The notes under the pieces are model-generated. The model was not told the DNA's origin. It saw only the letters and a program-made list of their open reading frames with translations, and did not search any database. From Bacillota bacterium (GTDB lineage Bacteria > Pseudomonadota > Gammaproteobacteria > Natronospirales > REEB76), in the NCBI GenBank assembly GCA_050261675.1, contig JBLNDO010000023.1, positions 74,261 through 138,260 of the forward strand: a DNA stretch of 64,000 bases. Reading direction: 5' to 3'. The translations under genes and the position numbers were made by a program. Each line of letters begins with the position of its first letter. Positions within the stretch are counted from its first letter, which is position 1. This document shows positions 5,833-22,424 of the stretch, piece by piece.

Positions 5833-6206
5833 GGCTGCTCACCCCGGCGTGCGTGTGTCGGGTACCCACCCGAATGCAAGTCACGCTAGGCCCGTAGTCG
5901 CATAGCCTCAATGAGGGAAACTCCTCATTTGGAACACAGAGATTCCCATGCCCGTTATGTCAAAGAATAACACCGCAATCCACGTCGTTGCGTACGCGCG
6001 GGCTTCGGCGTGCCCGCTCTCATGAGGAGGCCACAACGGTAAAATCAGGTGATTTCCTAATTACAAAACTGCCCGCGCGACCGCACACTTCGCGCAGGTC
6101 GTGTACCCCTCACGACCCGGGGTTAATGCTCCCCATTGACCCCATCGGTCAGGACGCAACATCCTGGCTCCAAACCGGATGAACTCCCTATCATCCGATT
6201 TGACTG

Positions 6207-6243
6207 GAAGCGCCTCTTTTGACGTAAGAGGCGCTTCTTTTTT
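6207..6243 (+). terminator. Rho-independent terminator (plus strand) inside the divergent intergenic region
   Basis: Perfect 12-bp stem gaagcgcctctt / aagaggcgcttc with loop ttgacgt, followed by TTTTTT (6238-6243). On the minus strand no T-run follows the hairpin. Confidence 0.6.
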
Positions 6244-6351
6244 GCCTGCAAGCCTAATGACTTGATGCCCGCGCATGACATATCCGGGCCGTTCACACCG
6301 CGTGCATTTCATCCTGGCGAATATCCGCCTCCATTCAGGGTAATCCCGCAA

Positions 6352-6372
6352 GTGATTCACGTAATCACCTGC
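6352..6372 (+). promoter_or_regulatory. Candidate operator/activator box GTGATTCACGTAATCACCTGC (inverted repeat GTGATT-N5-AATCAC)
   Basis: Matches the box at 10240-10260 in 20 of 21 positions. Lies 185 bp upstream of the 6557 start and abuts a -35-like TTGCCC (6373-6378), a 16-nt spacer and a -10-like TATCTT (6395-6400). Confidence 0.5.
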
Positions 6373-6556
6373 TTGCCCAGAATTCGAACGCGCGTATCTT
6401 TGAAAATACGGCCTATAAACCGCATCAGCGTCCGCAAAACCCTTCGTCGATATCACAAATGACATTGACGGATCCTGCGTCTTGCGTGCATCAGGGCGTT
6501 TGCGCGATGTCGCCATTGGCCCATGACCAGGAATTCCGAGTTAGGGAGGGCGAGCC

Positions 6557-9538
6557 ATGACCCGAGATAGCCTGACAAATCGTTTCAAGATCGCAGCCTC
6601 GGCTGCTCTTGCATTTACAGTTCTCGGCCTGGCCGGATGCCCGTCCGGATCCATGAGTCCCTCTTCACCGACCCAAGCGGACCGGTTCCCCGCGGCGATG
6701 GTGAGTTCCACCGTCGATTCCGGACTCATACTTACCATCGGCATTCCCAAAGGAGACATCGCCAAGCCGGATGGCAACCCCGTCATCCTCAGCACCGTGC
6801 CGGGAAGCGCCTCCACCCCGGCGCACGGTTACGCGCGCGTGGAGCAGGACAACCCCGCCGTGACCTACACCGGCAACTGGGTGGCCACCACTTCCCCCAC
6901 GGATTATTCCGGCGGCAGTGCGGCGGAATCGGTCAACGCCGGAGATGAATTCCACTATAACTTCACCGGCACGGCGGTACGCTGGGTCGGCTATCGCGGA
7001 ACGGACACAGGCATGGCCGATGTGTATATCGACGGCCTGATGGTCGGTAGCGTGGATACCTACAGCACCGCGCCTTATCCCCATGCAATGCTATTCACCG
7101 CTACTGGCCTCACCCCCGGCGGACATACCCTGACGGTGCAGGTGGAGGGCCTGCACAATTCTGCCTCGACGGGTTCAGCCGTCTGGGTGGATGCCCTCGA
7201 CGTGTCCGGACAGCCGGCGGCAACCTCTGCCAGCGTCATGCCCGAGTCCACGGGCAGCACCGTGACCACGCGCATCCAAGAGGATGATCCCGCCATCTCC
7301 TACAGCGGATCCTGGAGCAGCGAGTCGTCCGGGCTCCTGGGGCTGCCGCCGCAATACAGCGGCGGGTCGGCAGCGGTATCGTCGTCCGGCGGCTCCCAGG
7401 CCATCCTCACCTTCATCGGCACGGGTGTCAGCTGGATCGGCTACAAGGACACCCTCTCAGGCATCGCCGACGTGATCCTCGACGGCAGCCCCGTCGCCAC
7501 CGTGGACAGCTACGACACCTTGCCGGCTTCCCAGGCGACGCTCTACTCCGTCTCGGGCCTGACCAACGCGCGCCACAGCCTGACCATTCGGGTCACGGGC
7601 GGTCACAGCCTGCTTTCGCTGGGTTCGAACGTGACGGTGGACGCGTTCGACGTGCAGGCGCCACCTCCGGATACCACGCCGCCCACGGTGAGCATGACCG
7701 CGCCTGTGAACGGTGCAACCGTATCTAAAACCATCACCATCTCGGCGACCGCCTCCGACAACGTGGGCGTTACGAGCGTGCAATTCGAACTGGACGGCGC
7801 CGCCCTCGGCGGCAAACTGAGTTCCGCCCCCTATTCCATCTCCTGGGACAGCACGGCGGTCGCGAACGGCAGCCATACGCTGGCCGCCGTGGCCAGCGAC
7901 GCGGCCGGCAATCATTCCACGGCAACGCCGGTCACGGTGGAGGTGGCCAACCAGACCCAGCCGCCGCCCGACACCACGCCGCCCACGGTCAGCATGACCG
8001 CACCGGTCAACGGCGCCACGGTCTCCGGCACGGTCACCGTCTCCGCCGATGCCTCCGATAACGTGGGGGTGGCGGGCGTGCAGTTCCTGCTGGATGGCGC
8101 CGCCCTCGGCACCGAGGACACGAATGCGCCCTATTCGGTTTCCTGGAACACCGTCAATGTGCCGAACGGCACCCACCGGCTCAGCGCCATGGCCCGCGAT
8201 GCCTCGGGCAACACGAGCACCTCGGCCGCCGTGACCGTGACGGTAAGCAACGGCCCGCCGCCCGATACCACGCCGCCCGCGGTGAACATGACCGCACCGG
8301 CCAACGGTGCGACGGTCTCGGGCAACGTCACCGTGTCCGCCAACGCCTCGGATAACGTGGGGGTGGCGGGTGTGCAGTTCGAACTGGACGGGGCCGCCCT
8401 GGGCGCGGAAGTCACGAGCGCGCCTTACTCCATCTCCTGGAACAGCACCAGCGTCGCCAACGGCAGCCACAGCCTGACCGCCGTGGCCCGGGATGCGGCC
8501 GGTAACCACACGACCGCGACGCCGGTGAATGTCACCGTCAGCAACCAGAGCCAGCCGCCGCCTGACACCACGCCGCCCACGGTCTCCATGACTGCTCCGG
8601 CGAACGGCGCCACGGTCTCCGGCAACGTCACCGTGTCCGCCAACGCCTCGGACAACGTGGGCGTGGTAGGTGTGCAGTTCAAACTGGACGGCGCAAACCT
8701 GGGACCTGAGGACACCAGCGCGCCCTATTCCATCACCTGGAACAGCGCCGGCGCCAGCAACGGCAGCCACAGCCTGACCGCCGTGGCCCGGGACGCCGCC
8801 GGCAACAAGACCACCGCCACGTCCGTGACCGTCACGGTCTCCAACAGCAGCGGCGACACCACGCCGCCCACGGTGAGCATCACGGCACCCGCCAGCGGCT
8901 CCACCGTCACGGGCACTGTGACCGTCTCGGCCACCGCCTCCGACAATGTGGGGGTCGCGGGGGTGCAGTTCATGTTGGACGGCGCGGCCCTGGGCGCCGA
9001 GGACACCACCGCGCCCTATTCGGTCTCATGGAATACCACGAGCGCCAGCAACGGCGGCCACACACTCACGGCGGTTGCCCGCGACGCCGCCGGCAACCAT
9101 ACCACCTCCTCGCCGGTAAGCGTGACGGTGTCCAACAGCGGCGGCGGGGGAACCACCACCCGCATCGAACAGGACAATCCGGCGGTGGCGTACACGGGCA
9201 CCTGGGTCACCGCCAGCGACTCGAGCGTCAGCGGCGGCACCGCCACGGAATCGAACCAGGCGAACGCCACGGCGACGCTGACATTCAGCGGCACGGGCGT
9301 CACCTGGATCGGCTACAAGTGCGGCTGCGCAGCCGGCATCGCGGACGTATCGGTGGATGGCGGCGCGCCTACCCAGGTGGACAATTATTCGGCGACCACC
9401 GAGCCACAGGCGAAAGTGTTCAGCGTGAGCAATCTGCCGAAGGGTACCCACACCCTGAAGATCACTGTCACCGGCACCTTCGACCGTAACGGCAGCACGG
9501 CCTACGTGGTGGTGGACGCCTTCGACGTCACGGATTGA
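6557..9538 (+). CDS. Surface lipoprotein: 2 lectin-like modules + 5 Ig-like (Big_7-like) repeats + 1 lectin-like module
   Basis: 993-aa ORF with a lipobox (LGLAG|C). It has three copies of a ~125-aa module (R-[VI]-[EQ]-x-D-[ND]-P-A-[VI]-x-Y-[ST]-G-x-W ... SGG[ST]A ... F-x-G-T-[GA]-V-x-W-[IV]-G-Y ... D-V-x-[IVL]-D-G ... H-[ST]-L-[TK]-I ... V-D-A-[FL]-D-V). It also has five ~98-aa repeats (TTPPTVSxTAP..GATVSG.VTVSA.ASDNVGV.GVQF.LDG..LG...APYS..W.....NG.H.L.A.A.D.AGN). Confidence 0.85.
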   Translation: MTRDSLTNRFKIAASAALAFTVLGLAGCPSGSMSPSSPTQADRFPAAMVSSTVDSGLILTIGIPKGDIAKPDGNPVILSTVPGSASTPAHGYARVEQDNPAVTYTGNWVATTSPTDYSGGSAAESVNAGDEFHYNFTGTAVRWVGYRGTDTGMADVYIDGLMVGSVDTYSTAPYPHAMLFTATGLTPGGHTLTVQVEGLHNSASTGSAVWVDALDVSGQPAATSASVMPESTGSTVTTRIQEDDPAISYSGSWSSESSGLLGLPPQYSGGSAAVSSSGGSQAILTFIGTGVSWIGYKDTLSGIADVILDGSPVATVDSYDTLPASQATLYSVSGLTNARHSLTIRVTGGHSLLSLGSNVTVDAFDVQAPPPDTTPPTVSMTAPVNGATVSKTITISATASDNVGVTSVQFELDGAALGGKLSSAPYSISWDSTAVANGSHTLAAVASDAAGNHSTATPVTVEVANQTQPPPDTTPPTVSMTAPVNGATVSGTVTVSADASDNVGVAGVQFLLDGAALGTEDTNAPYSVSWNTVNVPNGTHRLSAMARDASGNTSTSAAVTVTVSNGPPPDTTPPAVNMTAPANGATVSGNVTVSANASDNVGVAGVQFELDGAALGAEVTSAPYSISWNSTSVANGSHSLTAVARDAAGNHTTATPVNVTVSNQSQPPPDTTPPTVSMTAPANGATVSGNVTVSANASDNVGVVGVQFKLDGANLGPEDTSAPYSITWNSAGASNGSHSLTAVARDAAGNKTTATSVTVTVSNSSGDTTPPTVSITAPASGSTVTGTVTVSATASDNVGVAGVQFMLDGAALGAEDTTAPYSVSWNTTSASNGGHTLTAVARDAAGNHTTSSPVSVTVSNSGGGGTTTRIEQDNPAVAYTGTWVTASDSSVSGGTATESNQANATATLTFSGTGVTWIGYKCGCAAGIADVSVDGGAPTQVDNYSATTEPQAKVFSVSNLPKGTHTLKITVTGTFDRNGSTAYVVVDAFDVTD
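7661..9140 (+). repeat. Five in-frame tandem DNA repeats (periods 300, 294, 300, 291 bp) encoding the Ig-like domains
   Basis: Repeat starts read at 7661, 7961, 8255, 8555 and ~8852 (cc[ag]cc[tg]cc.ga[tc]accacgccgccc[ag]cggt...). Long near-identical stretches are shared between copies. Confidence 0.9.
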
Positions 9539-9565
9539 AACAGTAAGCCAGCAAAGGAGCAGCTC

Positions 9566-10048
9566 ATGAAAAGAATCACCGCTCGCAGCATACGAAACAG
9601 CCTGGCGGGAATGATTTCAACGGTCACTCTGTTGCTCTGCCTAGGCACCGATGCCCAAGCTGCCGGCAGTCGCGTCGAAGACGGGGATATATCCATCGTC
9701 TACGGGGGCATCTGGTACACCGCCAGTTCGTCCGAACTGAGCGGCGGCTCCGGGCATGAATCCAATACCGTCGGATCCACGGCCTCGCTGGTATTCACCG
9801 GCACCGGCGTCACCTGGATCAGTTACACCTGTGCCTGCGAAGCGGGTATCTCAAACGTGTATATCGATGGCAAGTTTGCCGCCAGCGTGGATACTTATTC
9901 GCCCACGCCCCAGGCCCAGGTGCCCGTGTTTACGGCGAGCAATCTCACGCCGGGCGTGCACATCCTGACCATTGAAGTGACCGGCAAATTCGATCCGCGC
10001 GGTCAGACGGCCTATGTCATGATCGATGCTTTCGATGTCGTCGATTAG
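9566..10048 (+). CDS. Secreted single-module protein (one copy of the lectin-like module, CxC subtype)
   Basis: 160-aa ORF 27 nt downstream of the 993-aa gene. Signal peptide with AQA|AG cleavage site. The module reads RVEDGDISIVYGGIWY...SGGSGHES...FTGTGVTWISYTCACEAGISNVYIDG...HILTIEVTG...IDAFDVVD. Confidence 0.8.
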   Translation: MKRITARSIRNSLAGMISTVTLLLCLGTDAQAAGSRVEDGDISIVYGGIWYTASSSELSGGSGHESNTVGSTASLVFTGTGVTWISYTCACEAGISNVYIDGKFAASVDTYSPTPQAQVPVFTASNLTPGVHILTIEVTGKFDPRGQTAYVMIDAFDVVD

Positions 10049-10239
10049 CGGACCATCGATCACAATTTAAATAAAGGCGAGGCGTTATTCGCTTTGGGCA
10101 ATGTTCGAGGCGAATAGCACCGAGCTGCTTGTGCCTGCGTGAAAATCACCGCAGGTAAATCATTGACCCCCGCTTAGATCCCCCCGATTCGTGTATCAAA
10201 ACCCCCATAAATTTGCATTGCCTCAGGCTTATCCATCGG

Positions 10240-10260
10240 GTGATTCACGGAATCACCTGC
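10240..10260 (+). promoter_or_regulatory. Candidate operator/activator box GTGATTCACGGAATCACCTGC (second copy)
   Basis: Matches 6352-6372 in 20 of 21 positions. Lies 152 bp upstream of the 10412 start. A TTGCAA -35-like hexamer follows 4 nt downstream, and an AT-rich -10-like stretch (ttttatatg) lies 17-19 nt further on. Confidence 0.5.
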
Positions 10261-10411
10261 GTGTTTGCAAATGGTTTGGATGTAAATTTTATATGACTTT
10301 GATGAGTCGGTTTTGTAAACCGAAAACGATTCCAACTCATAGGTTGGAATGCCCCTGTAATGGGCTCTAATGCGTGCGCGCTCCTTAAGAGAGCGCATTT
10401 AGGAGCGCGGG

Positions 10412-11572
10412 ATGGAAATCACATATAGTAAGTGGCACCAGCGGCGACGCATGGCGTTTGCGTTTATATGGGTTATGGCAACCGGAGCCATCGCCGCTCC
10501 GCCGCCGCCAGGCTATACCCGTGTCGAGGAAACCGATGCCGCCGTCCAGTATTCAGGCACCTGGCAGAGCGCCGCGGACAGCAGCTACAGTGGGGGCACC
10601 GCGACGTACTCAACCCAGGTGGGAGCCACAGCGCAGTTGAGCTTCAGCGGTACCGCCGTGCAGTGGATCGGAGAACGCGGTCCCCACACGGGCCAGGCTC
10701 AGGTGTTCCTGGACGGCATCCACGTGGCCGACGTCAATACCGCCTCCAAACAGACCACGAGCCAGGCGGTACTTTACGTCGCAAGCGGCCTCACCCAAGC
10801 GAGCCATACGCTCACCATCCAGGTGAAGAAGATACAGAGCGCACCTCCCGGCCAACTGCAAGGCGTCTGGGTGGACGCCTTCGACGTGCTCCCGATTTCC
10901 ACCGATACCACTCCACCCACCGCCACCCTCACCGCGCCAACCGACGGCCGCACCATCTCGGGAACCGTGACCGTATCGGCGAACGCCTCGGACAACGTTG
11001 GGGTGACGAGCGTTCAGTTCGAGTTGGATAACGCCCCGCTGGGGGCGCCCGACACCACGGCCCCCTATTCCATCTCCTGGAGCACTACTGCCGTGTCCAA
11101 TGGTTCCCACACCCTAGTCGCGGTGGCGCGGGATGCCGCCGGTAACATCGGCACCTCCCAACCCGTGACCGTCACCGTGAACAACAGCGTGACGCGCATC
11201 GAACAGGACAACCCGGCGGTGGCCTACACCGGCGTTTGGGTTACCGCCAGCGATCCTACGGTGAGCGGCGGCACAGCCGCCGAATCCAACCAGGCCAACG
11301 CCACCGTAACCCTGACCTTCAAGGGCACCGGCGTCACCTGGATTGGCTACAAGTGTACCTGCGCCTCGGGCTATGCCGACGTGTCGGTGGATGGCGGCCC
11401 CGCGACACAGGTGGACGGTTATTCCGCGACGACGGAGCCCCAGGCACCCATGTTTACCGCCAGCAACCTTCTTGAGGGCACCCATACCCTCGTCATCACC
11501 GTGACAGGCCAATACGACCGTCAAGGCGATACCGCCTACGTCGTGGTAGATGCCTTCGATGTGACGCCTTGA
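10412..11572 (+). CDS. Secreted protein: lectin-like module + one Ig-like repeat + lectin-like module (CxC subtype)
   Basis: 386-aa ORF with a signal peptide (MAFAFIWVMATGAIA|AP). By my count its C-terminal module is ~82% identical (103/126) to the C-terminal module of the 993-aa protein. Confidence 0.85.
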   Translation: MEITYSKWHQRRRMAFAFIWVMATGAIAAPPPPGYTRVEETDAAVQYSGTWQSAADSSYSGGTATYSTQVGATAQLSFSGTAVQWIGERGPHTGQAQVFLDGIHVADVNTASKQTTSQAVLYVASGLTQASHTLTIQVKKIQSAPPGQLQGVWVDAFDVLPISTDTTPPTATLTAPTDGRTISGTVTVSANASDNVGVTSVQFELDNAPLGAPDTTAPYSISWSTTAVSNGSHTLVAVARDAAGNIGTSQPVTVTVNNSVTRIEQDNPAVAYTGVWVTASDPTVSGGTAAESNQANATVTLTFKGTGVTWIGYKCTCASGYADVSVDGGPATQVDGYSATTEPQAPMFTASNLLEGTHTLVITVTGQYDRQGDTAYVVVDAFDVTP

Positions 11573-11659: not shown

Positions 11660-12472
11660 TTGCACGGAACCCGGCGCCACCGGTTCCTGGCCGCTCCGTC
11701 GCCAACCCCGGGCCCGGAGAGCGAAGTGGACCCTCAAAGCCTATCCCGCACGTTGCCAGCGACGTTCAAAGCCCTGATCGCCACCGATGACGACGCGCTG
11801 ACGAGCGTCGAAAGCTCGGCGCTCAAGCAGTTGAACTTCGACACCGTCACCGCGCACGACAACGGCGAGATGCTGAATACCGTCAAGGAAGAGAAACCCG
11901 ATCTGGTGATTTTGGATGCGGCCCTCCCCGGGGGTGGGATCGATGCATGCCGCAAACTGCGCGAGGATCCCAACACCGCGGAAATTCCCATCATCATGGT
12001 CACCTCGGCGGACAACAACACCGAGAAGGTCGAGGCATTGGAAACCGGCGCGGACGACTGCGTCACACGGCCGGTGCAGGTGGACGTGCTGGTCGCTCAC
12101 ATCAAGGCGGTGACCCGGCGCGCCCTGCCAGATCTCCCGAGCAACCGCCTGCGCGCGGGCCCCATCGAGATGGACCTGGACCGCTGGACCGTGAGCATCG
12201 GCGGACAGCCCCTGGAACTCACCAAGAAGGAATTCCGCCTGCTGCAGGTGCTGCTGGAGGCGAAGGGCCGCGCCCTTACCCGCGATTTCCTGCTCCAGAA
12301 GGCCTGGTCCCACGCCACCATCCACGGGCTCGATACCCGCACCGTGGACGTCCACATCGGCCGGCTGCGGCGAAAACTGGGCAGCGCGGGCCAGTACATC
12401 ATCACCGTTCGCAACGTCGGCTTCCGCTTCGACATCCTTCCGGACTGGATAACGAGTTATCACTCGCCGTGA
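11660..12472 (+). CDS. OmpR/PhoB-family response regulator (REC + winged helix), no adjacent kinase
   Basis: Receiver motifs (ATDDD, DLVILDAALPG, IIMVTS) and a wHTH (LTKKEFRLLQVLL...VDVHIGRLRRKL...ITVRNVGFRF). The start codon is uncertain: TTG at 11660 gives a ~35-aa non-conserved leader. Confidence 0.8.
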   Translation: MHGTRRHRFLAAPSPTPGPESEVDPQSLSRTLPATFKALIATDDDALTSVESSALKQLNFDTVTAHDNGEMLNTVKEEKPDLVILDAALPGGGIDACRKLREDPNTAEIPIIMVTSADNNTEKVEALETGADDCVTRPVQVDVLVAHIKAVTRRALPDLPSNRLRAGPIEMDLDRWTVSIGGQPLELTKKEFRLLQVLLEAKGRALTRDFLLQKAWSHATIHGLDTRTVDVHIGRLRRKLGSAGQYIITVRNVGFRFDILPDWITSYHSP

Positions 12473-12819
12473 TGATCCTTTAAGTCCACGTCGGAGACGT
12501 GGGGTCTTTATGTGCGCCATTTTCGGGTATTTACCCGATACCTATGCGGCCCCGGGCCCCCGTAGAGTTTACTTAACTCGGGTACACGCCCGACTATTGT
12601 CTATTGACATATGACGGGGCAGGCGCCGGGCATGTGAACTATCATTGCGGATACTGCTTGTCGCGTTTTGATGCCCTGGGGTCTGCGCGGCTGCGGGGAA
12701 ACGGCAATGACGCAATGTCCGCCGCCTGCACCACCCAATGACCGCCACCGGGTTCGCCCCTTGAACCCAATTGCCATTGACGCACCCGCCCGCCGGGGAG
12801 ACGAACGAGGAGCAGCACG

Positions 12820-13743
12820 ATGAGCGACAAAAACACCAAAGGCCGCGACCGGGACCTGCAGCCCGAGAGAGGGGCACCGGCCGGTGCACCCAACGACGAA
12901 TCCCATGTCGAGGTACTGAGGGAGCTGGTGGCCCACCTGCGCCAGAACCGCACGCAACTGCGCGAGGTATGGGCGAGCCGCATCATGGGTTCGCGGTTCC
13001 TCACCGCCATGACCAACGAGGAAATCATGGCGGAAGCAAGTTCCGTGTACGACAACTACCTCGGCGCCCTGGAGACGGGCTCCATCGAAGCCCTCGAAGC
13101 CTACGCCCGAGACCTCTCCGAGCGCATCATCCCCCGCGGCGTCGAGACCCACGAAGTGGTGGGTATCGTGCTGCTGCTGCGCGACGTGCTGGCCCGCTCG
13201 CTGTTTTCCAAGTACGGCCAGAACCAGCAGATCCTGACGCGGGTGCTGGATGCCTACGAACCCGCGGCGAACCGCATCGCCACCACGGTGGCGGTGGGCT
13301 TCGTGCAGGAGCGCGAGCGCATCATCCGCCAGCAACAGGAAGCCATACGCGAGCTGTCCACGCCAGTGCTCGCGGTGCGCGAGCGCCTGTTGATCCTGCC
13401 GATCATCGGCATCCTCGACCCACAACGCGCGCGGCAATTGACCGAGCAGCTGTTGCGGGGCATTCGCATCAACCGCGCCCGGGTGGTGGTGATGGACCTG
13501 ACGGGTGTGCCGGCGGTGGACGCCGCCGTCGCCAACCACTTGGTGCAGACGGTGGAAGCCGCCCGCCTGGTCGGCGCCGACGTGATCGTCACCGGCCTCG
13601 CGCCGGAACTCGCCCAGACACTCGTGACCATCGGCGTCGACCTCGGCAAGATGGCCACGGTGGGCGACCTGCAAGGCGGCATCGAGGAAGCGGAAAAACT
13701 CCTGGGTTACAAAGTCGTACCGAGCGTCGAAGCCGCCGAATAA
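12820..13743 (+). CDS. rsbR: RsbR-like stressosome sensor (N-terminal non-haem-globin-like domain + STAS)
   Basis: 307-aa ORF preceded by a GAGGAG Shine-Dalgarno. The C-terminal STAS domain reads ELSTPVLAVRERLLILPIIGILDPQRARQL...VVVMDLTGVPAVDAAVANHLV...VIVTGLAPELAQTLV. Confidence 0.85.
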   Translation: MSDKNTKGRDRDLQPERGAPAGAPNDESHVEVLRELVAHLRQNRTQLREVWASRIMGSRFLTAMTNEEIMAEASSVYDNYLGALETGSIEALEAYARDLSERIIPRGVETHEVVGIVLLLRDVLARSLFSKYGQNQQILTRVLDAYEPAANRIATTVAVGFVQERERIIRQQQEAIRELSTPVLAVRERLLILPIIGILDPQRARQLTEQLLRGIRINRARVVVMDLTGVPAVDAAVANHLVQTVEAARLVGADVIVTGLAPELAQTLVTIGVDLGKMATVGDLQGGIEEAEKLLGYKVVPSVEAAE

Positions 13744-13752
13744 AGGACCGCC

Positions 13753-14136
13753 ATGGAAGTCCCTATACTAAAACAGCGCAATTACCTGATTGCGTCTGTA
13801 CAGGCGGTCCTGACCGACCAGGACCTCGTCAACCTCCGCGACCGGTTGGTCGCCCAGGTGGGGCGATACCGGTCTGTGGGCGTGATCCTCGACGTGACCG
13901 GCCTCGACGTCATGGATTCCTTTTCGGTGCGAACACTGCGCGACATGGCGCACATGATCCGGCTGCGCGGCGCCGACACCGTCATCGTAGGCATCCAGCC
14001 CGAAGTCGCATTCTCCATGGTGCAGCTCGGGTTGAGCCTCGAGGGTGTCCCCACCGCACTCGACCTGGAGGAAGGCCTGGCATACCTCGACGCGCGGCCG
14101 AAGCGCGTGAGTGCCGGTGCGATGAGCAATAAATGA
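13753..14136 (+). CDS. rsbS: RsbS-like STAS scaffold protein
   Basis: 127-aa single-STAS ORF (PILKQRNYLIASVQ...ILDVTGLDVMDSFSV...VIVGIQPEVAFSMVQLG) that keeps the D-S-F serine. Confidence 0.85.
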   Translation: MEVPILKQRNYLIASVQAVLTDQDLVNLRDRLVAQVGRYRSVGVILDVTGLDVMDSFSVRTLRDMAHMIRLRGADTVIVGIQPEVAFSMVQLGLSLEGVPTALDLEEGLAYLDARPKRVSAGAMSNK

Positions 14137-14591
14137 TCGAGCGACCCGACCCCCCTCCCCCGGACGCAGGGAAGGCGGCGGAACAGCAACAAGGCAGGAT
14201 CACGATCCCCATACGGGCCGTGGCGGACATCGTTACCGCGCGCCAGCATGGGCGGCAACTTGCGCTAAATTCCGGCTTCACGGAAACCGAATCCACGCTG
14301 ATCGCCACCATCATCTCCGAGCTGGCGCGCAACATCGTGCTTTATGCCGAGACCGGCGAGATCATCCTCGAGAAAGCCACCAACAGCGCCAGCCACCGCG
14401 GCATCACGATCGTCAGCCGCGACCAGGGGCCTGGCATTCCCGACGTACAGCGGGCATTGGTGGGTGGTTATTCGACCTCCGGCGGGCTGGGACTCGGGCT
14501 CTGCGGCGTGCGCCGCATGGTGGACGAGTTCTACATCGAGACGGGGGCCGGAAAGGGAACCACGGTCACGGCGAAGAAATGGCTGCAGTGA
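14133..14591 (+). CDS. rsbT: RsbT-like switch serine kinase (GHKL ATPase, anti-sigma regulatory factor type)
   Basis: 152-aa ORF whose start overlaps the rsbS stop (ATGA at 14133-14136). It has the N box (ELARNIVLYA), G1 (DQGPGI) and G2 (GGLGLGL). Confidence 0.85.
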   Translation: MIERPDPPPPDAGKAAEQQQGRITIPIRAVADIVTARQHGRQLALNSGFTETESTLIATIISELARNIVLYAETGEIILEKATNSASHRGITIVSRDQGPGIPDVQRALVGGYSTSGGLGLGLCGVRRMVDEFYIETGAGKGTTVTAKKWLQ

Positions 14592-15193
14592 TCGACAAAA
14601 AAGTCATCGAATCCGCCTCGGCGGTCTTCACCCTGCCGGGCCAAAGCGAGTCGGGAGACCGGCACGTCATCCTGCACCTGCCCCACGGCGCGTTAGTCGC
14701 GGTCATCGACGGGCTGGGACACGGCAGCGAAGCCGCGGCCGCGGCGCAGCGGGCCGTGGTGAACATAGAACAGTACGCGGAAGGCGATTCGCTCATCGCG
14801 CTGGTGAAGCGCTGCCATGCGGCGCTCGTCGGCACCCGCGGCGCGGTGATGAATCTGGCGGCGTTTGACACGCGCGAAGACACGCTCACCTGGCTCGGGA
14901 TCGGCAACGTGGAGGGCCGTATCCTGCTCAGGACCACGAACCCGGGCTATGCGCAGCAGGGCCTGTTGCTGCGCCCAGGGGTCGTTGGCCAGAAACTCCC
15001 CCGCTTGCAGACCTCGGTCACGCGCGTGCAGCGCGGCGACATGGTGATATTCGCCACCGACGGCATCGATCCCGACTTCGTCGAAGGCGTGCATACCGGC
15101 GACAGCACCCAGGAGATCGCCGAGCGCATCGTCACCCGTTATTGCAAGAAGAACGACGACGCCCTGGCGCTCGTCGTCAGGTACCTCGGTTGA
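14579..15193 (+). CDS. rsbX: RsbX-like PP2C/SpoIIE-family feedback phosphatase
   Basis: 204-aa ORF overlapping the rsbT end by 13 nt. Motifs are GDRHVI..., VIDGLGHGSEAA and IFATDGI. Confidence 0.8.
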   Translation: MAAVIDKKVIESASAVFTLPGQSESGDRHVILHLPHGALVAVIDGLGHGSEAAAAAQRAVVNIEQYAEGDSLIALVKRCHAALVGTRGAVMNLAAFDTREDTLTWLGIGNVEGRILLRTTNPGYAQQGLLLRPGVVGQKLPRLQTSVTRVQRGDMVIFATDGIDPDFVEGVHTGDSTQEIAERIVTRYCKKNDDALALVVRYLG

Positions 15194-15199
15194 AATGGG

Positions 15200-16141
15200 A
15201 TGCGCGACCCAGCCTCCCTCGATCTCGCAGGAATGTACAGGCAGGCACTCAAGCAATACCTGGCGAACGGCGGCGAAGCTCCGCTCCACCAGGCCTATGA
15301 GCTGGGACGGCAGGCGCTGGATTCCGGCATCGGCTTGCTCGGCCTGGTGAACATCCACCAGGAGGCGACGGCCAGCATGCTCAAGGATGCGAATGGAGAC
15401 GCCCTGCGCCGCTTTCGCGACGCCCACCACTTCCTGCTGGAAAGCATGGCGCCCTTCGAGATGATGCAGGTCGGCAACCGGGAATCTAACGCCGCGCTGC
15501 GCCGCCTGAACGCCATCCTGGAAGAGGAAGCGAAACGCATCGCCCACATCCTGCACGACGAGGCGGCGCAGCTGCTCGCCTCGGTATACCTCGAGCTCGC
15601 CGAGATACTCCGCGAGACGCCCCCGGCGCAGATCCGCTCCCACGTGGAGCGCATCACCTCCCACCTCGACCAGGTGCGCGAGCAGCTGCGGCGGCTCTCC
15701 CACGAGCTGCGTCCGCCCATATTGGACCAATTGGGCCTGTTGCCGGCGCTCCAGTTCCTGGCCGACGGCTTCCGCAAACGGAACAATCTCCAGGTCGAAC
15801 TGGAGAACGGCGTCACGGTCGATGGCCGACTGCCCCAGGGCATCGAAACCGCGCTCTACCGCGCCGTGCAGGAGGCACTCACCAACGTGGTTCGCCATGC
15901 CAATGCCCGTTGCGCCTGGATACGGGTATGGACCAACAAGGGAACCGTCTATTGCACCGTGCGGGACGACGGCGTCGGTTTTACACCCGCTACCGAAGGC
16001 GCCGACGTGCGCCCCCGGGGGCTGGGCCTGCTAGGCATACAGGAGCGCATCGGCAGCCTGCACGGCAACTTCAACGTGACCTCCATGCCCGGCGCAGGCA
16101 CGGAGCTTTACATCGGCATCCCACTTGGAGGCAACGTATGA
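15200..16141 (+). CDS. Cytoplasmic HisKA_3/HATPase histidine kinase with an RsbU_N-like N-terminal domain
   Basis: 313-aa ORF with no TM segment. It has the H box (AHILHDEAAQLL), N box (QEALTNVVRHA), G1 (DDGVGF) and G2 (GLGLLGIQER). The N-terminal ~90 aa (YRQALKQYLANGGEAPLHQAYELGRQALDSGIGLLGLVNIHQEA) resembles, from memory, the RsbT-docking N domain of RsbU. Confidence 0.8.
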   Translation: MRDPASLDLAGMYRQALKQYLANGGEAPLHQAYELGRQALDSGIGLLGLVNIHQEATASMLKDANGDALRRFRDAHHFLLESMAPFEMMQVGNRESNAALRRLNAILEEEAKRIAHILHDEAAQLLASVYLELAEILRETPPAQIRSHVERITSHLDQVREQLRRLSHELRPPILDQLGLLPALQFLADGFRKRNNLQVELENGVTVDGRLPQGIETALYRAVQEALTNVVRHANARCAWIRVWTNKGTVYCTVRDDGVGFTPATEGADVRPRGLGLLGIQERIGSLHGNFNVTSMPGAGTELYIGIPLGGNV

Positions 16142-16773
16142 TGACGCAAACCATACTACTAGCCGACGACCACTTCGTGTTCCAACAGGGCCTGAAGGCC
16201 CTATTGGAACGCGAGGGCTTCGATGTAGTGGCGGAAACCAAGGACGGCCACGAGGCGGTGCGCCTCAGCCGCCAACTCAGCCCCGATGTGGCGGTGCTCG
16301 ACATCGGCATGCCGCTCCTGAACGGCATCGACGCCGCCCGCCAGATCCTCAAGCAGAGCCCCGGCACCCAGGTGGTAGTGCTCACCATGTACGAGGAGGA
16401 TGCCTACGTGCTGGAAGCCCTGCGGGCCGGCATCCGCGGCTACGTGCTCAAGGCCCAGGCGGCGGCGGACCTGGTGGCCGCCATCCGCGAGGTATCGCGC
16501 GGGGCGGTGTACCTCAGCCCGGGCGTCTCCAAGACGGTGGTGGACGCCTACATGGGCAAATCCGAGCTGCCGCTCGACCCCCTCACCGACCGCGAGCGCC
16601 AGGTGCTGCAATTGGTGGCGGAAGGCAAGACCACGAAGGCGGTCGCCGACATCCTGGGCCTGAGCGTCAAGACCGCGGACTCACACCGCACCCGCATCAT
16701 GCAGAAGCTGGAAATCCACGAGACCGCGAGCTTGGTCCGCTATGCGATCCGCCGGGGGTTCATCAAGCCATGA
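16138..16773 (+). CDS. NarL/FixJ (LuxR-HTH) response regulator, copy 1
   Basis: ATG at 16138 overlaps the kinase stop (ATGA). Receiver domain (LLADDH, DVAVLDIGMP) plus a LuxR HTH (LTDRERQVLQLVAEGKTTKAVADILGLSVKTADSHRTRIMQKL). The ORF-track extension back to 15910 lies inside the kinase gene. Confidence 0.9.
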   Translation: MMTQTILLADDHFVFQQGLKALLEREGFDVVAETKDGHEAVRLSRQLSPDVAVLDIGMPLLNGIDAARQILKQSPGTQVVVLTMYEEDAYVLEALRAGIRGYVLKAQAAADLVAAIREVSRGAVYLSPGVSKTVVDAYMGKSELPLDPLTDRERQVLQLVAEGKTTKAVADILGLSVKTADSHRTRIMQKLEIHETASLVRYAIRRGFIKP

Positions 16774-16942
16774 GCTTGCCGGCCCCCATACGAACAATAT
16801 GTCCGGTTTACCTTCACCGGGTCCCAACCCCCATACGTACACCGTAATATTCCGGATTGCCTGTCGCGCGGCCGATATTTATAAGTTAAGTACCCGATCC
16901 CGGGTCCTAGAGAAAGCGGCTCCCGCAACATGGTCCAAACCG

Positions 16943-17356
16943 GTGCAGACCCCTCACAGCCACTGCGTCTTCCTGAAGCAACATAATTACCTGATCGTCT
17001 CCATCCAGACGCCCCTCACCGACGCGGAATTTTCCGCCCTAGGGGGGCAAGTCGCAGAGTTGATCATGAGCTACCACTCGAACGGCGCGGTATTGGACCT
17101 GTCGGGGTTGGACGTGGTGGATTCCTTCTCGGTGCACAACCTGAGGCGTCTGTGCGAGACGCTGCGACTCTATTCCGTGACCACGGTGATTACCGGAATA
17201 CGGCCCGCGATCGCGATCTCCATGGCCATCCGCGGCCTCGCACTCAGCCTGAAGGGCGTAACGATCGCGGCGGACTTGAGTGCCGCCGTGGAGCTGCTCG
17301 ACACGGCCGCGGGCTATCCGGCCACACCCGGAGAGTCCTATCCCAGCCTGCATTGA
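16943..17356 (+). CDS. Second, stand-alone RsbS-like STAS protein
   Basis: STAS core FLKQHNYLIVSIQTPLTD...VLDLSGLDVVDSFSV...VITGIRPAIAISMAIRG aligns with RsbS (13753-14136) at roughly 40-45% identity by eye. The start (GTG 16943) was chosen by alignment and is uncertain. A sigma70-like TTGCCT-17-TATAAG lies at 16857-16885. Confidence 0.7.
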   Translation: MQTPHSHCVFLKQHNYLIVSIQTPLTDAEFSALGGQVAELIMSYHSNGAVLDLSGLDVVDSFSVHNLRRLCETLRLYSVTTVITGIRPAIAISMAIRGLALSLKGVTIAADLSAAVELLDTAAGYPATPGESYPSLH

Positions 17357-17566
17357 TCACCGCTGTTCCCGTACGGGTATTCTCCCGATGGACTCTAAGG
17401 TTCCGCCCCGCCGGAAATACGCGTATTAACACGCCGAACTAAGGTGCTTGATTCACGATTTGCAGGTATTTACTCGATTCCTCGCATGGGGGCATTACCC
17501 CATAGTTTTCCGAAGCGCGTATCGTTTTCACGCGGAGTCGCCTTTTCTCCGCAGGAGACCAGACGG

Positions 17567-18196
17567 ATGCAGCGCATCTTGTTGGCTGACGATCACCCGA
17601 TGTTCCAGCAGGGGCTCAAGGCCCTGTTGGAACGCGAGGGCTTCGACGTGGTGGCGGAAGCCAAGGACGGCCACGAGGCAGTGCGCCTCGGGCGCCAACT
17701 CAGCCCCGACGTGGCGGTATTGGACATCGGCATGCCGCTCCTGAACGGCATCGACGCCGCCCGCCAGATCCTCAAGCAGAGCCCCGGCACCCAGGTGGTG
17801 GTGCTCACCATGTACGAGGAGGAGGCCTACGTGCTGGAGGCCCTGCGGGCCGGCATCCGTGGCTACGTGCTCAAGGCCCAGGCGGCAGCCGACCTGGTGG
17901 CCGCCATTCGCGAGGTATCGCGCGGGGCGGTGTACCTCAGCCCGGGCATCTCCAAGACGGTAGTGGATGCCTACATGGGCAAATCCGAGCTGCCGCCCGA
18001 CCCCCTTACCGACCGCGAGCGCCAGGTGCTGCAGCTCATCGCCGAGGGGAAGACCACCAAGCAGATCGCGGAGATCCTGGGCCTGAGCGTCAAGACCGCG
18101 GACTCCCACCGCACCCGCATCATGCAGAAACTCGAGATCCACGAGACCGCGAGCCTGGTCCGCTACGCCGTGCGCAGGGGTTTCATCAAGGCCTAA
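17567..18196 (+). CDS. NarL/FixJ (LuxR-HTH) response regulator, copy 2 (near-duplicate of copy 1)
   Basis: ATG at 17567 (MQRILLADDH). I counted 13 differences in ~204 residues aligned to copy 1, with long identical DNA stretches (for example gacatcggcatgccgctcctgaacggcatcgacgccgcccgccagatcctcaagcagagccccggcacccaggtgg). Confidence 0.9.
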   Translation: MQRILLADDHPMFQQGLKALLEREGFDVVAEAKDGHEAVRLGRQLSPDVAVLDIGMPLLNGIDAARQILKQSPGTQVVVLTMYEEEAYVLEALRAGIRGYVLKAQAAADLVAAIREVSRGAVYLSPGISKTVVDAYMGKSELPPDPLTDRERQVLQLIAEGKTTKQIAEILGLSVKTADSHRTRIMQKLEIHETASLVRYAVRRGFIKA

Positions 18197-18199
18197 ACG

Positions 18200-18895
18200 A
18201 TGCCCTCCAGGATGGAACCACACATGAACAGCGCCTTGCAGATCCCGGCACCGGTCGGGCAACAACCGGTACGGATCCTATTGGCGGACGATCACAGCAT
18301 ATTCCGCCAGTGCCTGTGCATGCTGTTGGAACGGGAGGGGTTCGAAGTGGTGGGTCAAGCCTCCGGGGGACAGGAGGCGGTGGGACTGGCGCAATCGCTG
18401 CATCCGGACGTGGTCATCCTCGACTACAGCATGCCGGACATGAACGGCATCGACACCGCCCGCGCCATGCAGAAAGCGGTGCCCGGGGCCCAGACGATCC
18501 TGCTGACCGCCCAGGAGGACAATGCCAACGCCATCGAGGCCCTGCGCGCCGGCATGCACGGTTATATCTACAAGTCGCAGACCGCCGAGGAGCTGGTGGG
18601 GACGGTGCGGGAAGTCGCGGGAGGGGCCATCCATTTCAGTGCGCGGCTACCGCCCATGGCCATCGAGAGCTACATCACGCACATGGGCCGCGAGTCCGAC
18701 CCGCTGACCGAGCGGGAACGGCAGGTCCTGCGGATGATCGCCACCGGCAACACCACGCGGGCGATCGCGAAGGAACTCGGCCTGAGCGCCAAGACCGTGG
18801 AATCCCATCGCAGCCGCATCATGCACAAGCTGCATCTGCACCGGGCCGCCGAACTGATCCGCTACGCCATCCGCCGCCAGCTCATCACCCCTTAA
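18200..18895 (+). CDS. NarL/FixJ (LuxR-HTH) response regulator, copy 3 (divergent)
   Basis: Starts 4 nt after copy 2. Receiver domain (ILLADDH, DVVILDYSMPDMNG) and HTH (LTERERQVLRMIATGNTTRAIAKELGLSAKTVESHRSRIMHKL). Confidence 0.85.
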   Translation: MPSRMEPHMNSALQIPAPVGQQPVRILLADDHSIFRQCLCMLLEREGFEVVGQASGGQEAVGLAQSLHPDVVILDYSMPDMNGIDTARAMQKAVPGAQTILLTAQEDNANAIEALRAGMHGYIYKSQTAEELVGTVREVAGGAIHFSARLPPMAIESYITHMGRESDPLTERERQVLRMIATGNTTRAIAKELGLSAKTVESHRSRIMHKLHLHRAAELIRYAIRRQLITP

Positions 18896-19265
18896 AACTC
18901 TCCCTGCACAAAACCACCTCGCTGTCACTCAGGGAAACCCTGAGTCGCTAACAGAACGCAACGCACGCTTTGTGTGATGCGGCTCACACTATCTATTTCG
19001 TTTACTAACAGTTGGGGTTTTTTTTAGAGTTCCGTTACACACGGCAGGTATATCTGCACGTGCCGGTAAGGTGTCTACCGCAGGGTCTCTACCCGAAGGA
19101 AAGCACCCGAACGTCATGATGCGGGATATACGGGCAACCGCCCCGATTCACGTTGTGACATAACGGCACTGGATCCGCAGGGCGACGCAACACGCCTTCA
19201 TGCCCAGTGACCTCCGGCAAGCGCGCTCGCAAGAGCACCCGAGCAATGCCACTGAGGTTACGAGC

Positions 19266-22200
19266 ATGACAACGTGTATCAGCCCCTTCCGCCGGTTCAG
19301 CCGGCTTATCGCAATCGGCGCCCTGGCGCTTGCATCGCTGTTCGCCGCGAGAGCGGTCTGCGCGGATACCGCCACAGGCGGCTTCCTGGAAAGCGACGAG
19401 ACCTCCGTGGTCCGCGGCCTGCTGAGCCAAAGCACGATCAACGGTTTCCTGCCGCAGCGCGGCGCATTCACCTTCCCGGCGCCCTACAACACCCAGGGCA
19501 TCCGCGTCACCAACTCGAGCGACTGTGGCGGGCAGGATTGCGTGGACATGATCTACTCGTACTGGCGCAACATGAGCAACAGCGCGGGCAGCAACACCAT
19601 GTACATCTTCATCGGCCTGGACCGCAACCGCGGCGGCCAGGGCCCGACACTATTCAGCTACGACAAGAGCACCGGGCAGCTGACCGAGGTGGGCCCGCTG
19701 TTCGACTCTTCCAGCTCGTACAGCTGGAACAGCGGCGAGGGCTGGTACTTCAGCTACGGCATGCCCACCAAGATCTACATGCAGGACGGCTCGAAGCTGT
19801 TGCGCTACGACGTGCTGGCGCACACTTTCGAGACCGTGTTCGATTCAACCAGCCAATACCCGAACACGGTCATCCGGCAGACCAACTCCAGCAACAACGA
19901 TGACGTGCACTCCGCGACCCTGGAGGACGCCAGCACCTGGCAGCCCACGGCCTGCATCGCCTACAAGGCGAGCACGAATCAGTTCTTCTACTTCGCCGTC
20001 CAGGGCCACTTCGACGAATGCCAGATCGACAAGAGCGGCCGCTACCTCGAGATCAAGGAAAAGCTGCCCAGCGATCCCTGCTCGAGTTGCGACGAGGACG
20101 ACGTGATCGAGGACCTGCAGGCCGGCACCGAAAAGGTGCTCTACGACCAAGCCGGCGCCGGCGGCCATTCCGACCTCGGCTACGGCACCATGGTGGCGGT
20201 GGACAACTGGAACAACTACGCCAATGCCTGGCGCTTGTGGGACCTGTCCTCACCGTTTCCGACCGCGCAGGGACAAGGCGGCGCCACGAACCTGGGCTTC
20301 GCCCAAGGCGGCCTTGTTTACCACAACCTGAGCTGGAGCGCGTTCAACCCCTCGCACATCAGCTATGAGAACGCGAACACTTCCGCGCCCGTGAGCCAGC
20401 AGTACGCCTGCGGCGGCGCGGTGAACACGACCATTGTGCCCCAGTCCAATGACATCATCTGTTTCCTGCTCAACCCGGCAGTCCCGGCTTCGTCGGAGCA
20501 GGCTCTGATCGTTGCTCCGGTCATGACGGACATGAGCGCCAGCGGCGGCAGCGCCACCTGCCCGAGCTGCGTGGCCTACGGCCAGGATCCCAAGGGCAAC
20601 CTGGACCCCACCGGCCAGTACTTCTTCTGGGTCAGCAACATGGGCGGCAGCCGGATGGATGCCTTCATCGTGAAGGTCCCATACCAACTCCTGACCGGCT
20701 CCAGCGGCACCGGCGGCACGAGCGGCGGCACCACTGACACCACGCCTCCGACCGTTTCCATCTCCAGTCCGGCGGCAGGCGCGTCCCTGACCGGCAGCGT
20801 CACGGTTTCCGCGAACGCATCCGACAATATCGGCGTGGCGAGCGTGCAGTTCAAGCTGGACGGCGCCAACCTCGGCTCCGCCCTCACCCAGGCGCCTTAC
20901 AGCCTCTCTTGGGATACCACCGCCGTGGCCGCGGGCACGCACACCCTGACCGCGGTGGCGACCGACACCTCCGGGAACACCGCGACCTCCTCGTCGGTGT
21001 CCGTGACGACGGTGCTGCCGGTGTTCCCGCCGACGATCTCGAGCGTCGCTTCCTCCGTCACCGGCTCGTCAAGCGCGAGCGTCAGCTGGACCACCGATCA
21101 GGCCAGCAATTCGCAGGTGGCCTTCGGCACCACCACGGCCTACGGCACCACCACCACGCTCAACACAAGCATGGTGACCTCGCACTCCATGAGCCTCTCG
21201 GGCCTCGCCGCGAGCACCACGTACCACTACCAGGTGATTTCGGCGAACTCGTCAGGCCAGCAGTCGGTGTCCGCGGACTACACGTTCACCACCCAGGCGG
21301 GCGGCAGCACGACCCTGCCCTCGACCACCGCCAACTGGCACCTGAACGCCACCAGTGGCACCACCGCCATCGACAGCTCGGGTAACGATCACACCGGTAC
21401 CCTGGTCAACGGCCCGGCCTGGACCGCCGGCGTCGCAGGTAACGGTCTCGCGTTCAACGGCACGAACCAGTACGTGACGGCGGCGAGCAAAGGCCTGAAC
21501 CTGTATCCGCTCACCGTGTCCGCGTGGTTCAAAACCTCGTCCACCAGCGGCCTGCACGGGCTCGTGAACAAATACAACGTCAGCTCCATGAACGGCTATC
21601 AGGTGTTCATGAGCAACGGCAACCTGTGCGCCTGGTACTTCCGTGACAGCGCCGACTACGTCTGGGACGGCAGCGGGTGCACCCTGAACACGTCGGGCTA
21701 CGCGGACAACCAGTGGCACATGGTGACCTACACCGTGAATTCCGCCGGCGGCAAGCTCTACGTGGACGGCGTCCTCAAGGCGAGCCGCGCCTGGACAGGC
21801 GTGGCAGGCGCCACCACCTCCGGTGCGGCCCTCAGCATGGCCCGCTATCCCGGGGTCAGCTCGCCGTATCTCGCCGCCACCCTGGACGAGGTGCGCCTGT
21901 ACAACAGCGCCCTCTCAGCGTCCCAGGTCGCCGCCCTCTATGCGAGCTTCCCGCTGGTGATGCCGGTGGCCTGGACCAACCTGGTGAACCTGACGGCGAA
22001 CGGCGGCAGCCTGACGAAGACCGGCGGCTGTGACGGTTGCGAGGACGCCACCGCCAATTCCCAGCAGCAGATCGCCCTGGGCGCGAGCGGCTACTTCGAG
22101 TTCACCGCCTCCGAGACCAACACGCTGCGCTATGCGGGCCTCACGAGCACCAGCTCCGGCCCCGGCTCAAGCAACATCGGCTACGCCATCCGGCTGCAGA

Positions 22201-22424
22201 GCGGCGATGCGGCGGTCTACGAGGGCGGTATCTACAAGACTGACGTGAGCTTCTCCTCCGGCGACGTGTTCCGCATCGCCGTGGGCGCCGGCGTGGTCAA
22301 CTACTACAAAAATGGGACTGTGTTCTACACCAGCAACACTGCTCCATCTTCGGCCCTGATAGCCTCGGCGGTGATCTGTAACATCAACGGCACCATCACG
22401 AGCGCCGTGATCAAGACCCAGTAG
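19266..22424 (+). CDS. Secreted multidomain protein: unassigned ~480-aa N-domain + Ig-like repeat + FN3-like + LamG/concanavalin-like + C-terminal domain
   Basis: ATG 19266 follows GAGG and opens a signal peptide (RLIAIGALALASLFAARAVCA). It has one Big_7-like repeat (TTPPTVSISSPAAGASLTGSVTVSANASDNIGVASVQFKLDG...) and an FN3-like segment (ASVSWTTDQASNSQVAFGTT...YHYQV). A LamG-like segment follows (GNGLAFNGTNQYV...LTVSAWFK...LDEVRLYNSALSASQV). Confidence 0.85.
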   Translation: MTTCISPFRRFSRLIAIGALALASLFAARAVCADTATGGFLESDETSVVRGLLSQSTINGFLPQRGAFTFPAPYNTQGIRVTNSSDCGGQDCVDMIYSYWRNMSNSAGSNTMYIFIGLDRNRGGQGPTLFSYDKSTGQLTEVGPLFDSSSSYSWNSGEGWYFSYGMPTKIYMQDGSKLLRYDVLAHTFETVFDSTSQYPNTVIRQTNSSNNDDVHSATLEDASTWQPTACIAYKASTNQFFYFAVQGHFDECQIDKSGRYLEIKEKLPSDPCSSCDEDDVIEDLQAGTEKVLYDQAGAGGHSDLGYGTMVAVDNWNNYANAWRLWDLSSPFPTAQGQGGATNLGFAQGGLVYHNLSWSAFNPSHISYENANTSAPVSQQYACGGAVNTTIVPQSNDIICFLLNPAVPASSEQALIVAPVMTDMSASGGSATCPSCVAYGQDPKGNLDPTGQYFFWVSNMGGSRMDAFIVKVPYQLLTGSSGTGGTSGGTTDTTPPTVSISSPAAGASLTGSVTVSANASDNIGVASVQFKLDGANLGSALTQAPYSLSWDTTAVAAGTHTLTAVATDTSGNTATSSSVSVTTVLPVFPPTISSVASSVTGSSSASVSWTTDQASNSQVAFGTTTAYGTTTTLNTSMVTSHSMSLSGLAASTTYHYQVISANSSGQQSVSADYTFTTQAGGSTTLPSTTANWHLNATSGTTAIDSSGNDHTGTLVNGPAWTAGVAGNGLAFNGTNQYVTAASKGLNLYPLTVSAWFKTSSTSGLHGLVNKYNVSSMNGYQVFMSNGNLCAWYFRDSADYVWDGSGCTLNTSGYADNQWHMVTYTVNSAGGKLYVDGVLKASRAWTGVAGATTSGAALSMARYPGVSSPYLAATLDEVRLYNSALSASQVAALYASFPLVMPVAWTNLVNLTANGGSLTKTGGCDGCEDATANSQQQIALGASGYFEFTASETNTLRYAGLTSTSSGPGSSNIGYAIRLQSGDAAVYEGGIYKTDVSFSSGDVFRIAVGAGVVNYYKNGTVFYTSNTAPSSALIASAVICNINGTITSAVIKTQ

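Follow-up and report, generated by a model that had tools for sequence, protein, structure and literature searches.

We analysed a 64 kb stretch of DNA, referred to as the window, which contains a stressosome locus with two RsbS-like genes: S1, the canonical RsbS of the rsbRSTX operon, and S2, a second and divergent copy encoded among the response regulators (RR1, RR2 and RR3) of the same locus. Here we describe S2, its relatives and the role it might have. S2 (16943..17356, + strand) encodes a protein of 137 amino acids (aa) with a single STAS domain, a GTG start and a TGA stop; the GTG at 16943 is the sole in-frame start which keeps strand beta1, and it is kept in the orthologues. A protein identical to S2 carries an annotation in an NCBI metagenome-assembled genome (MAG). 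Judged by the comparisons presented below, S2 is a real, conserved and fast-evolving gene.

An earlier reading of the window, made from the letters alone (the sequence-only reading), had described S2 as clearly related to RsbS, and the alignment bears this out: S2 and S1 are 46% identical over 111 aa (BLASTP, E 3e-30), the aligned stretches they have in common are LKQ.NYLI.S.Q, GLDV[VM]DSFSV and [TV]GI[RQ]P, and the serine loop is intact. The candidate phospho-serine of S2 is Ser61, within LDLSGLDVVDSFS, which aligns with Ser59 of Bacillus subtilis RsbS, the residue phosphorylated by RsbT. STAS (PF01740) is the only Pfam domain of S2 (E 3.5e-9, 36.8 bits, cut-off 22.6); NCBIfam contains no model specific to RsbS, and its ant_ant_sig model does not match S2. 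Concerning its position, S2 follows rsbT at a distance of 2.3 kb and is placed between RR1 and RR2; the canonical slot between rsbR and rsbT is that of S1. The gaps around S2, also pointed out in the earlier reading, measure 169 nucleotides (nt) from the RR1 stop (16773) and 210 nt to the RR2 start (17567). The sequence agrees with that reading in a further respect: S2 is encoded alone, away from the rsbRST genes, and is preceded by a conserved promoter-like element of its own.

A profile built from S2 orthologues was run against the sequences of the PDB. The lowest E-values are those of RsbS (3e-17 to 2e-15: Listeria 6qcm_A, B. subtilis 6jhk and Moorella 2vy9/3zxn), followed by the STAS domains of RsbR (5e-8 to 7e-4) and the SpoIIAA-type protein TM1442 (7e-3). 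The AlphaFold2 model of S2 (mean predicted local distance difference test 76, predicted template modelling score 0.73) contains four strands and five helices and resembles STAS structures; the C-terminal tail (residues 126-137, ending YPSLH) is predicted to be disordered. When the model was searched with Foldseek, ranks 1-5 were all RsbS, with B. subtilis 6jhk at the top (template modelling score 0.91 normalised to the target, root-mean-square deviation 1.3-1.6 Å), followed by Moorella RsbS; SpoIIAA has about 20% identity to S2 in the fold search. Because both the profile and the predicted fold are closest to solved RsbS structures, S2 is assigned to the RsbS type and not to the RsbV or RsbR type.

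Gene content of the stressosome locus

The genes of the locus, in addition to S2, are the following:

11660-12472, + strand: OmpR-type regulator
12820..13743, + strand: RsbR, with a weak RsbRD_N match and STAS
13753..14136, + strand: S1, canonical RsbS of the rsbRSTX operon
14133..14591, + strand: RsbT-type serine kinase (HATPase_c_2)
14579..15193, + strand: RsbX-type PP2C (SpoIIE) phosphatase
15200..16141, + strand: histidine kinase, N-terminal RsbU_N (E 9e-13), then HisKA_3 and HATPase_c
16138..16773, + strand: RR1, LuxR/NarL-type response regulator
17567..18196, + strand: RR2, LuxR/NarL-type response regulator, directly downstream of S2
18200..18895, + strand: RR3, more distant LuxR/NarL-type response regulator
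19200-22424, + strand: large Big_7/Laminin_G secreted protein

RsbT (14133..14591) is the only HATPase_c_2 kinase in the window, and RsbX is the only PP2C. This leaves RsbT as the one local candidate for a partner of S2. Neither an anti-sigma kinase of the RsbW/SpoIIAB type nor a sigma factor was found at the locus or in the rest of the window. RsbU_N is the domain on which RsbT docks; in Bacillus, RsbT activates RsbU by way of it. Since a kinase with this domain follows rsbRSTX, and such modules with two-component outputs have been described, the gene content identifies the locus as a stressosome whose output is the histidine kinase and three NarL/LuxR-type regulators. The rsbRSTX/RsbU_N-kinase/LuxR-regulator module is found widely among soil MAGs, across many phyla; the MAGs nearest to the window are Gammaproteobacteria.

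The locus is flanked by genes for large secreted proteins with Big_7/Laminin_G/fn3-like repeats and by polysaccharide genes (3094-11572 and 19200-22424). As this layout is kept in the relatives, the flanking genes are likely regulated outputs, with a role at the cell surface or in the matrix. A perfect inverted repeat, GGTGATTC-N3-GAATCACC, is present at 10239-10257 and precedes the gene for the secreted protein at 10412 by ~155 nt. The source MAG carries the NCBI label 'Bacillota bacterium'; the nearest loci by RsbS (91-97% identity) all belong to soil Gammaproteobacteria MAGs, and the label may be wrong.

Distribution and history of S2

Relatives of the window were gathered through S1 instead of the S2 profile. 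A scan of genome contigs with the S2 profile gave no match, and a metagenome scan with a wide S2 alignment gave four loci, two of which are S2. Intact syntenic S2 orthologues are found at at least eight independent loci, all of them in the same position:

Orthologues (59-64% identity): JGI contig L001; GCA_037025745.1 (L002/L003); ENA bin L005/L006/L007; metagenome contigs L088 and L089
More divergent copies: L013, L018 and the P0177 contig

The order of the locus in close relatives is R-S-T-X-kinase-RR1-[S2]-RR2-RR3-Big_7 protein. At all carrier loci S2 is part of the output module, and an RR2-type gene follows directly downstream of it. The sequence-only reading had placed S2 between duplicated regulators; this holds for the window, where RR1 and RR2 are 94% identical in protein sequence, but not for L092/L093, in which the order is kinase, S2 and a single regulator, without RR1. 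Because S2 is present there without RR1, the constant context of S2 is the output module and its RR2-type neighbour, not a position between duplicates. In the regulator tree, RR1 of the window groups with its own RR2 and not with the RR1 orthologues, which suggests recent gene conversion between RR1 and RR2 across S2 in the window genome.

A comparison of the rates of evolution, as the ratio of nonsynonymous to synonymous substitutions (dN/dS), is given here for the four closest genomes:

S1: identity 94-95%, dN/dS 0.03-0.07
RsbR: identity 94-99%, dN/dS 0.02-0.08
S2: identity 59-65%, dN/dS 0.24-0.42

S2 evolves faster than any other gene of the locus, at ~six to eight times the rate of S1 by dN/dS. 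The ratio is nevertheless significantly below 1 in all six pairs (dN/dS 0.24-0.41 in this test; Z of dS-dN, 3.1-4.1), and S2 is thus under purifying selection. Among 1.84 billion representative proteins (clustered at 50% identity), ~10 full-length clusters (P0026-P0035) score as S2 over S1, and family members which are less than 50% identical still keep the open frame, the STAS fold and the serine loop. Going by this search, the S2 family is small, rare and internally diverse.

In the tree of RsbR, RsbT, RsbX and the kinase, the S2-bearing loci W (the window), L001, L002 and L005 are sister to L010/L011, which have no S2. Progressively outside are L013 (with S2), L015/L017 (without) and L018 (with); beyond these, L019-L022 and L025 have none. 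The S2 sequences are monophyletic (99% bootstrap) and form a long branch beside the S1 family, and their inner order mirrors that of the locus tree. The simplest history for this pattern is one origin of S2 from the RsbS of the module, followed by vertical inheritance and, at least twice, complete loss. The spacer between RR1 and RR2 of L010/L011 is ~110 nt long, and the RR2-proximal block is still present. The duplication which gave RR1 and RR2 dates to about the same node as the origin of S2. A segmental duplication, in which S-T-X-kinase-RR was doubled and T-X-kinase was then deleted, is compatible with the timing of the regulator split; S2 is present without RR1 in L092, and we leave this scenario as speculation.

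As regards degradation in relatives, which the earlier reading had counted against a function, S2 is intact in most carriers; it is absent from the two pairs of loci named above, and the contig L095 (JGI 3300020122) has a TGA at 5524-5526, in the codon of Cys16 (QRN*LIV). The gene caller gives only a 94-aa C-terminal fragment of S2 for this contig (P0012). The TGA is either a nonsense mutation or a sequencing error; selenocysteine is very unlikely, as S2 of the window has Tyr at this position.

Some further observations concern the relatives as such. The canonical RsbS of the kinase-linked module is 70-97% identical across L008-L087, MAGs of which are assigned to Gammaproteobacteria, Acidobacteriota, Bacteroidota, Nitrospirota, Gemmatimonadota, Verrucomicrobiota and others. 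An identity as high as this is unusual over such distances and speaks for strong constraint, for horizontal spread of the module as a whole, or for both. Also, three relatives without S2 contain an extra gene for an RsbT-like kinase (minus strand: L019 5050-5565, L020 5680-6096 and L021 3932-4399), located on the opposite strand and adjoining a homologue of the secreted protein at 19200. It may represent a different way of adding a pathway partner.

Serine loop, shell contacts and flanking elements

The contact residues of B. subtilis RsbS (phospho-loop, ring and dimer interfaces; PMC6760441) were transferred by homology to the alignment of S1 with 12 S2 sequences. In the phospho-loop (residues 50-62), 10 of the 13 residues of S2 match the S1 consensus, and conservation is similar within the two families (0.91 in S2, 0.89 in S1). 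The ring interface, which contacts the neighbouring STAS dimers in the shell, equals the S1 consensus at only 6/17 positions, with the other 11 changed, on a map which rests on crystal-lattice and model contacts of a B. subtilis protein that is 33% identical. The changes include two charge reversals (D67 to R and E100 to K/R) and the replacement of residues which are invariant in S1 across phyla (M71T, R73Q, R75Y, F90I and L106V/I). Given the lower identity of S2 (59-65%) compared with S1 (94-95%) and RsbR (94-99%), and the divergence of the ring positions, the best reading is that S2 has been freed from the strict constraint which holds the canonical RsbS in the stressosome shell.

Eleven of the 12 aligned S2 sequences and nine of ten representatives of the family clusters retain the serine. 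In L018 and P0033, two different sequences of a single subclade, Ala takes its place, and the motif reads Asp-Ala-Phe (DAFS). The Ala variant of L018 is located at 13198-13614; the S2 genes of L092 and L093 are at 1206-1589 and 1226-1609. The equivalent S59A mutant of B. subtilis RsbS reportedly still binds RsbT and blocks signalling, i.e. it is a constitutive RsbT antagonist. By this analogy, the natural Ala variants argue that binding, rather than phosphotransfer, is the conserved property of S2.

Certain residues of S2 have no counterpart in S1. Cys8 and Cys71 are conserved, and Cys16 is found in the relatives (Tyr in the window). In the nearer S2 clade, the C-terminal YPS[LVI]H (residues 133-137) is invariant as well; it is not kept in the wider family. 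These cysteines or the tail might serve as a redox input or a docking motif.

Concerning the non-coding regions, the following elements were found next to S2:

16857..16885, + strand: promoter-like TTGCCT-N17-TATAAG (TTGCCT 16857-16862, TATAAG 16880-16885), 58 nt upstream of the GTG
17374..17387, no strand: inverted repeat CGGGTATTCTCCCG, 18 nt past the S2 stop, ahead of RR2
17463..17476, no strand: second, degenerate copy of the palindrome, CAGGTATTTACTCG, in a conserved block upstream of RR2

The promoter-like element was proposed in the sequence-only reading and is indeed present; TATAAG and a TTGCC-like -35 box upstream of S2 are conserved in L001, L002, L005 and L006, and in L001 and L005 a TG one base ahead of TATAAG resembles an extended -10. 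No intrinsic terminator was found on the + strand between RR1 and S2 or after S2, and an Rfam scan of 16700-17650 gave no match. A conserved hairpin in the 5' untranslated region before S2 was considered and dropped (consensus energy of only -3.6, unconvincing covariation).

The palindrome CGGGTA-NN-TACCCG has 10 matches in the window, compared with 2.3 expected. Six are intergenic at this locus (5859-5872, 12524-12537, 12579-12592, 17374-17387, 17463-17476 and 19082-19095), of which those at 12524 and 12579 are upstream of rsbR. The site at 17374 is perfect in L001 and L005, the block with the 17463 copy is retained also in L010 and L011, which lack S2, and L001, L002, L005 and L013 have orthologous palindromes ahead of rsbR as well as in the interval from S2 to RR2. 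The palindrome is probably an operator candidate of a LuxR/NarL-type regulator; if so, the stressosome operon and RR2-RR3 would be autoregulated. A different box, GGTGRTTT, is found ~45 nt upstream of the -10 of S2 in L001, L002 and L005, and GGTGRTTY is enriched in the window (10 vs 3.1 expected), mostly near Big_7 genes. We dropped this box as evidence of feedback: it is degenerate at the S2 promoter of the window and absent at the output genes of the relatives.

Possible role of S2 and comparison with known systems

The reading which we favour, tentatively and at a little under an even chance, is that S2 is an accessory and probably free antagonist or substrate of RsbT, which tunes signalling from RsbT to the histidine kinase. 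S2 would be located outside the stressosome core, or only loosely attached to it, and would capture RsbT as an additional antagonist or substrate, a candidate interaction; in most lineages RsbT would phosphorylate S2 and RsbX would reset it. In this way S2 would buffer the free RsbT which is able to dock on RsbU_N of the histidine kinase; the RsbT drive on the three LuxR-type regulators would then set in at a higher threshold or last less long. RsbT binding, freedom from the core and the effect on signalling are what we infer from the comparisons above. A role as RsbT decoy fits the kept phospho-loop together with the changed packing positions, as well as the Ala subclade. A stronger version, which we consider doubtful, is that S2 represents a class of free 'anti-RsbT' STAS proteins with genes in the output module, with a second partner-switch on RsbT between stressosome-bound S1 and soluble S2. 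If this were true, such a class would be phosphorylation-independent in some lineages (the Ala variants), might sense redox through the S2-specific cysteines, and would give the pathway an adjustable threshold, or one more input which does not depend on RsbR.

Several points weigh against the accessory role. Since S2 is absent from the sister lineages L010/L011 and L015/L017, it is dispensable and its contribution would be non-essential; the TGA in L095 is of the same bearing. The dimer interface of S2 equals the S1 consensus at 7/10 positions, Asp107, which is implicated in the contact with RsbR, is kept in 11/12 S2 sequences, and the interface map is that of a distant homologue. A strict sigma-70 scan left the promoter-like site of S2 unscored, as its -10 hexamer ends in G, and no Shine-Dalgarno sequence is visible before the S2 start; for these two reasons the expression of S2 may be low. 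In the window and its relatives, no reliable regulator-binding motif was found upstream of S2. Also, the window and its relatives are from uncultured soil MAGs and are read from sequence.

The kept dimer interface and Asp107, together with a fold and length which are those of RsbS, would also suit an alternative core subunit, in which S2 dimers replace some S1 dimers in the shell, with an effect on the RsbR:RsbS ratio, on the capacity for RsbT or on the kinetics of release. Mixing of this kind is known for the RsbR paralogues of Bacillus. Listeria mutants show a variable RsbR:RsbS stoichiometry (bioRxiv 10.1101/2025.03.04.640944). However, ring positions which are invariant in S1 across phyla are altered in S2, with two charge reversals, the excess of dN/dS over S1 is hard to square with the same multi-interface packing, and RsbR is highly conserved without matching co-variation; we regard a core subunit as unlikely. 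Somewhat less probable still is the full model of the sequence-only reading, according to which the LuxR-type output regulators induce S2 and S2 titrates RsbT, in a feedback loop distinct from RsbX. Its decoy part has all the evidence of the accessory role, and the separate, conserved promoter-like element, the constant position of S2 in the output module, with the gene of an RR2-type regulator right after it, and the GGTGRTTT box in L001, L002 and L005 agree with the induction part. On the other hand, the enriched palindrome is found downstream of S2, before RR2 and before rsbR, but not before S2, and the GGTGRTTT box has the shortcomings given above.

S2 always has an RR2-type gene as its neighbour, and in L092/L093 it separates the kinase from the only regulator; this could also mean that S2 acts downstream of or beside RsbT, either as a phosphate sink which competes with phosphorylated S1 and RsbR for RsbX or as a STAS partner of the kinase or of RR2. 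Cys8, Cys16, Cys71 and the YPS[LVI]H tail of the nearer clade would suit such a partner, but the most conserved part of S2 is the kinase-target loop which it has in common with S1, and the tail is not kept in the wider family; moreover, we know of no precedent for an RsbS-type STAS protein which binds a response regulator. We consider this role improbable. The least probable explanation, to which we give very little weight, is that S2 is a functionless, decaying duplicate of rsbS. The fast evolution of S2, its loss at least twice, the nonsense codon of L095 and the missing Shine-Dalgarno sequence would be expected of such a gene, whereas the significant purifying selection in all six pairs, the intact frame, STAS fold and serine loop in distant family members, and the conserved position and promoter-like element argue against decay.

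Stressosomes are usually described with many RsbR sensors and a single RsbS. A full-text literature search for an RsbS paralogue or a second RsbS turned up only RsbR paralogues and the stoichiometry notation 'RsbS2', in line with the earlier reading, which knew of no described role for RsbS paralogues encoded in the output module. In the literature searched, no output module with a conserved second RsbS has been described; S2 remains a STAS paralogue within a known signalling design. S2 bears on a poorly understood step, the buffering and reset of RsbT release in the widespread systems without sigma-B (rsbRSTX with two-component outputs). If S2 keeps the kinase-target loop but not the shell surface, it would be a natural experiment which parts the scaffold from the RsbT-antagonist function. 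S2 also offers a concrete component for in vitro study of stressosome output thresholds, with the natural Ser-to-Ala variants as built-in controls.

Of the known proteins, RsbS itself (B. subtilis 6JHK, Listeria 6QCM and Moorella MtS 2VY9) is the most similar to S2: it is a single STAS domain of ~120 residues with the best sequence and fold match, a D-S-F serine loop aligned with Ser59, and a locus with RsbR, RsbT and RsbX. S2 differs from it as a second copy outside rsbR-rsbS-rsbT, placed among response regulators and with its own promoter-like element; it is less conserved than the canonical protein (59-65% vs 94-95%), has 11/17 ring positions changed, extra conserved cysteines, a predicted disordered tail and Ala in one subclade, and has been lost in sister lineages. 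The RsbR paralogues (RsbRA-RD and YtvA) are, like S2, extra STAS proteins encoded apart from the core operon, and their modulation of the output is a known way in which stressosomes diversify; the role of S2 is predicted. Unlike S2, which has no sensor domain, they have N-terminal sensor domains and are core subunits. RsbV/SpoIIAA of the Bacillus sigB output module is, like S2, a single STAS domain with a phosphorylatable serine which is encoded downstream of the RsbT target, and it is a free, soluble kinase-binding antagonist, which is how S2 is proposed to work; however, its sequence similarity to S2 is much weaker, and the S2 locus lacks an RsbW/SpoIIAB-type kinase and a sigma factor. At the level of the whole locus, the consulted part of PMC9237108 describes eleven types of downstream architecture, with rsbRSTX and two-component outputs, some of them with RsbU_N, and no second RsbS is described among the types in that part. 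The rsbRSTX modules with non-sigma outputs presented there (V. vulnificus VvD1/D2) have, like the window, a minimal rsbRSTX followed by a two-component output, and the window is a variant of this design in which the kinase carries the RsbU_N docking domain.

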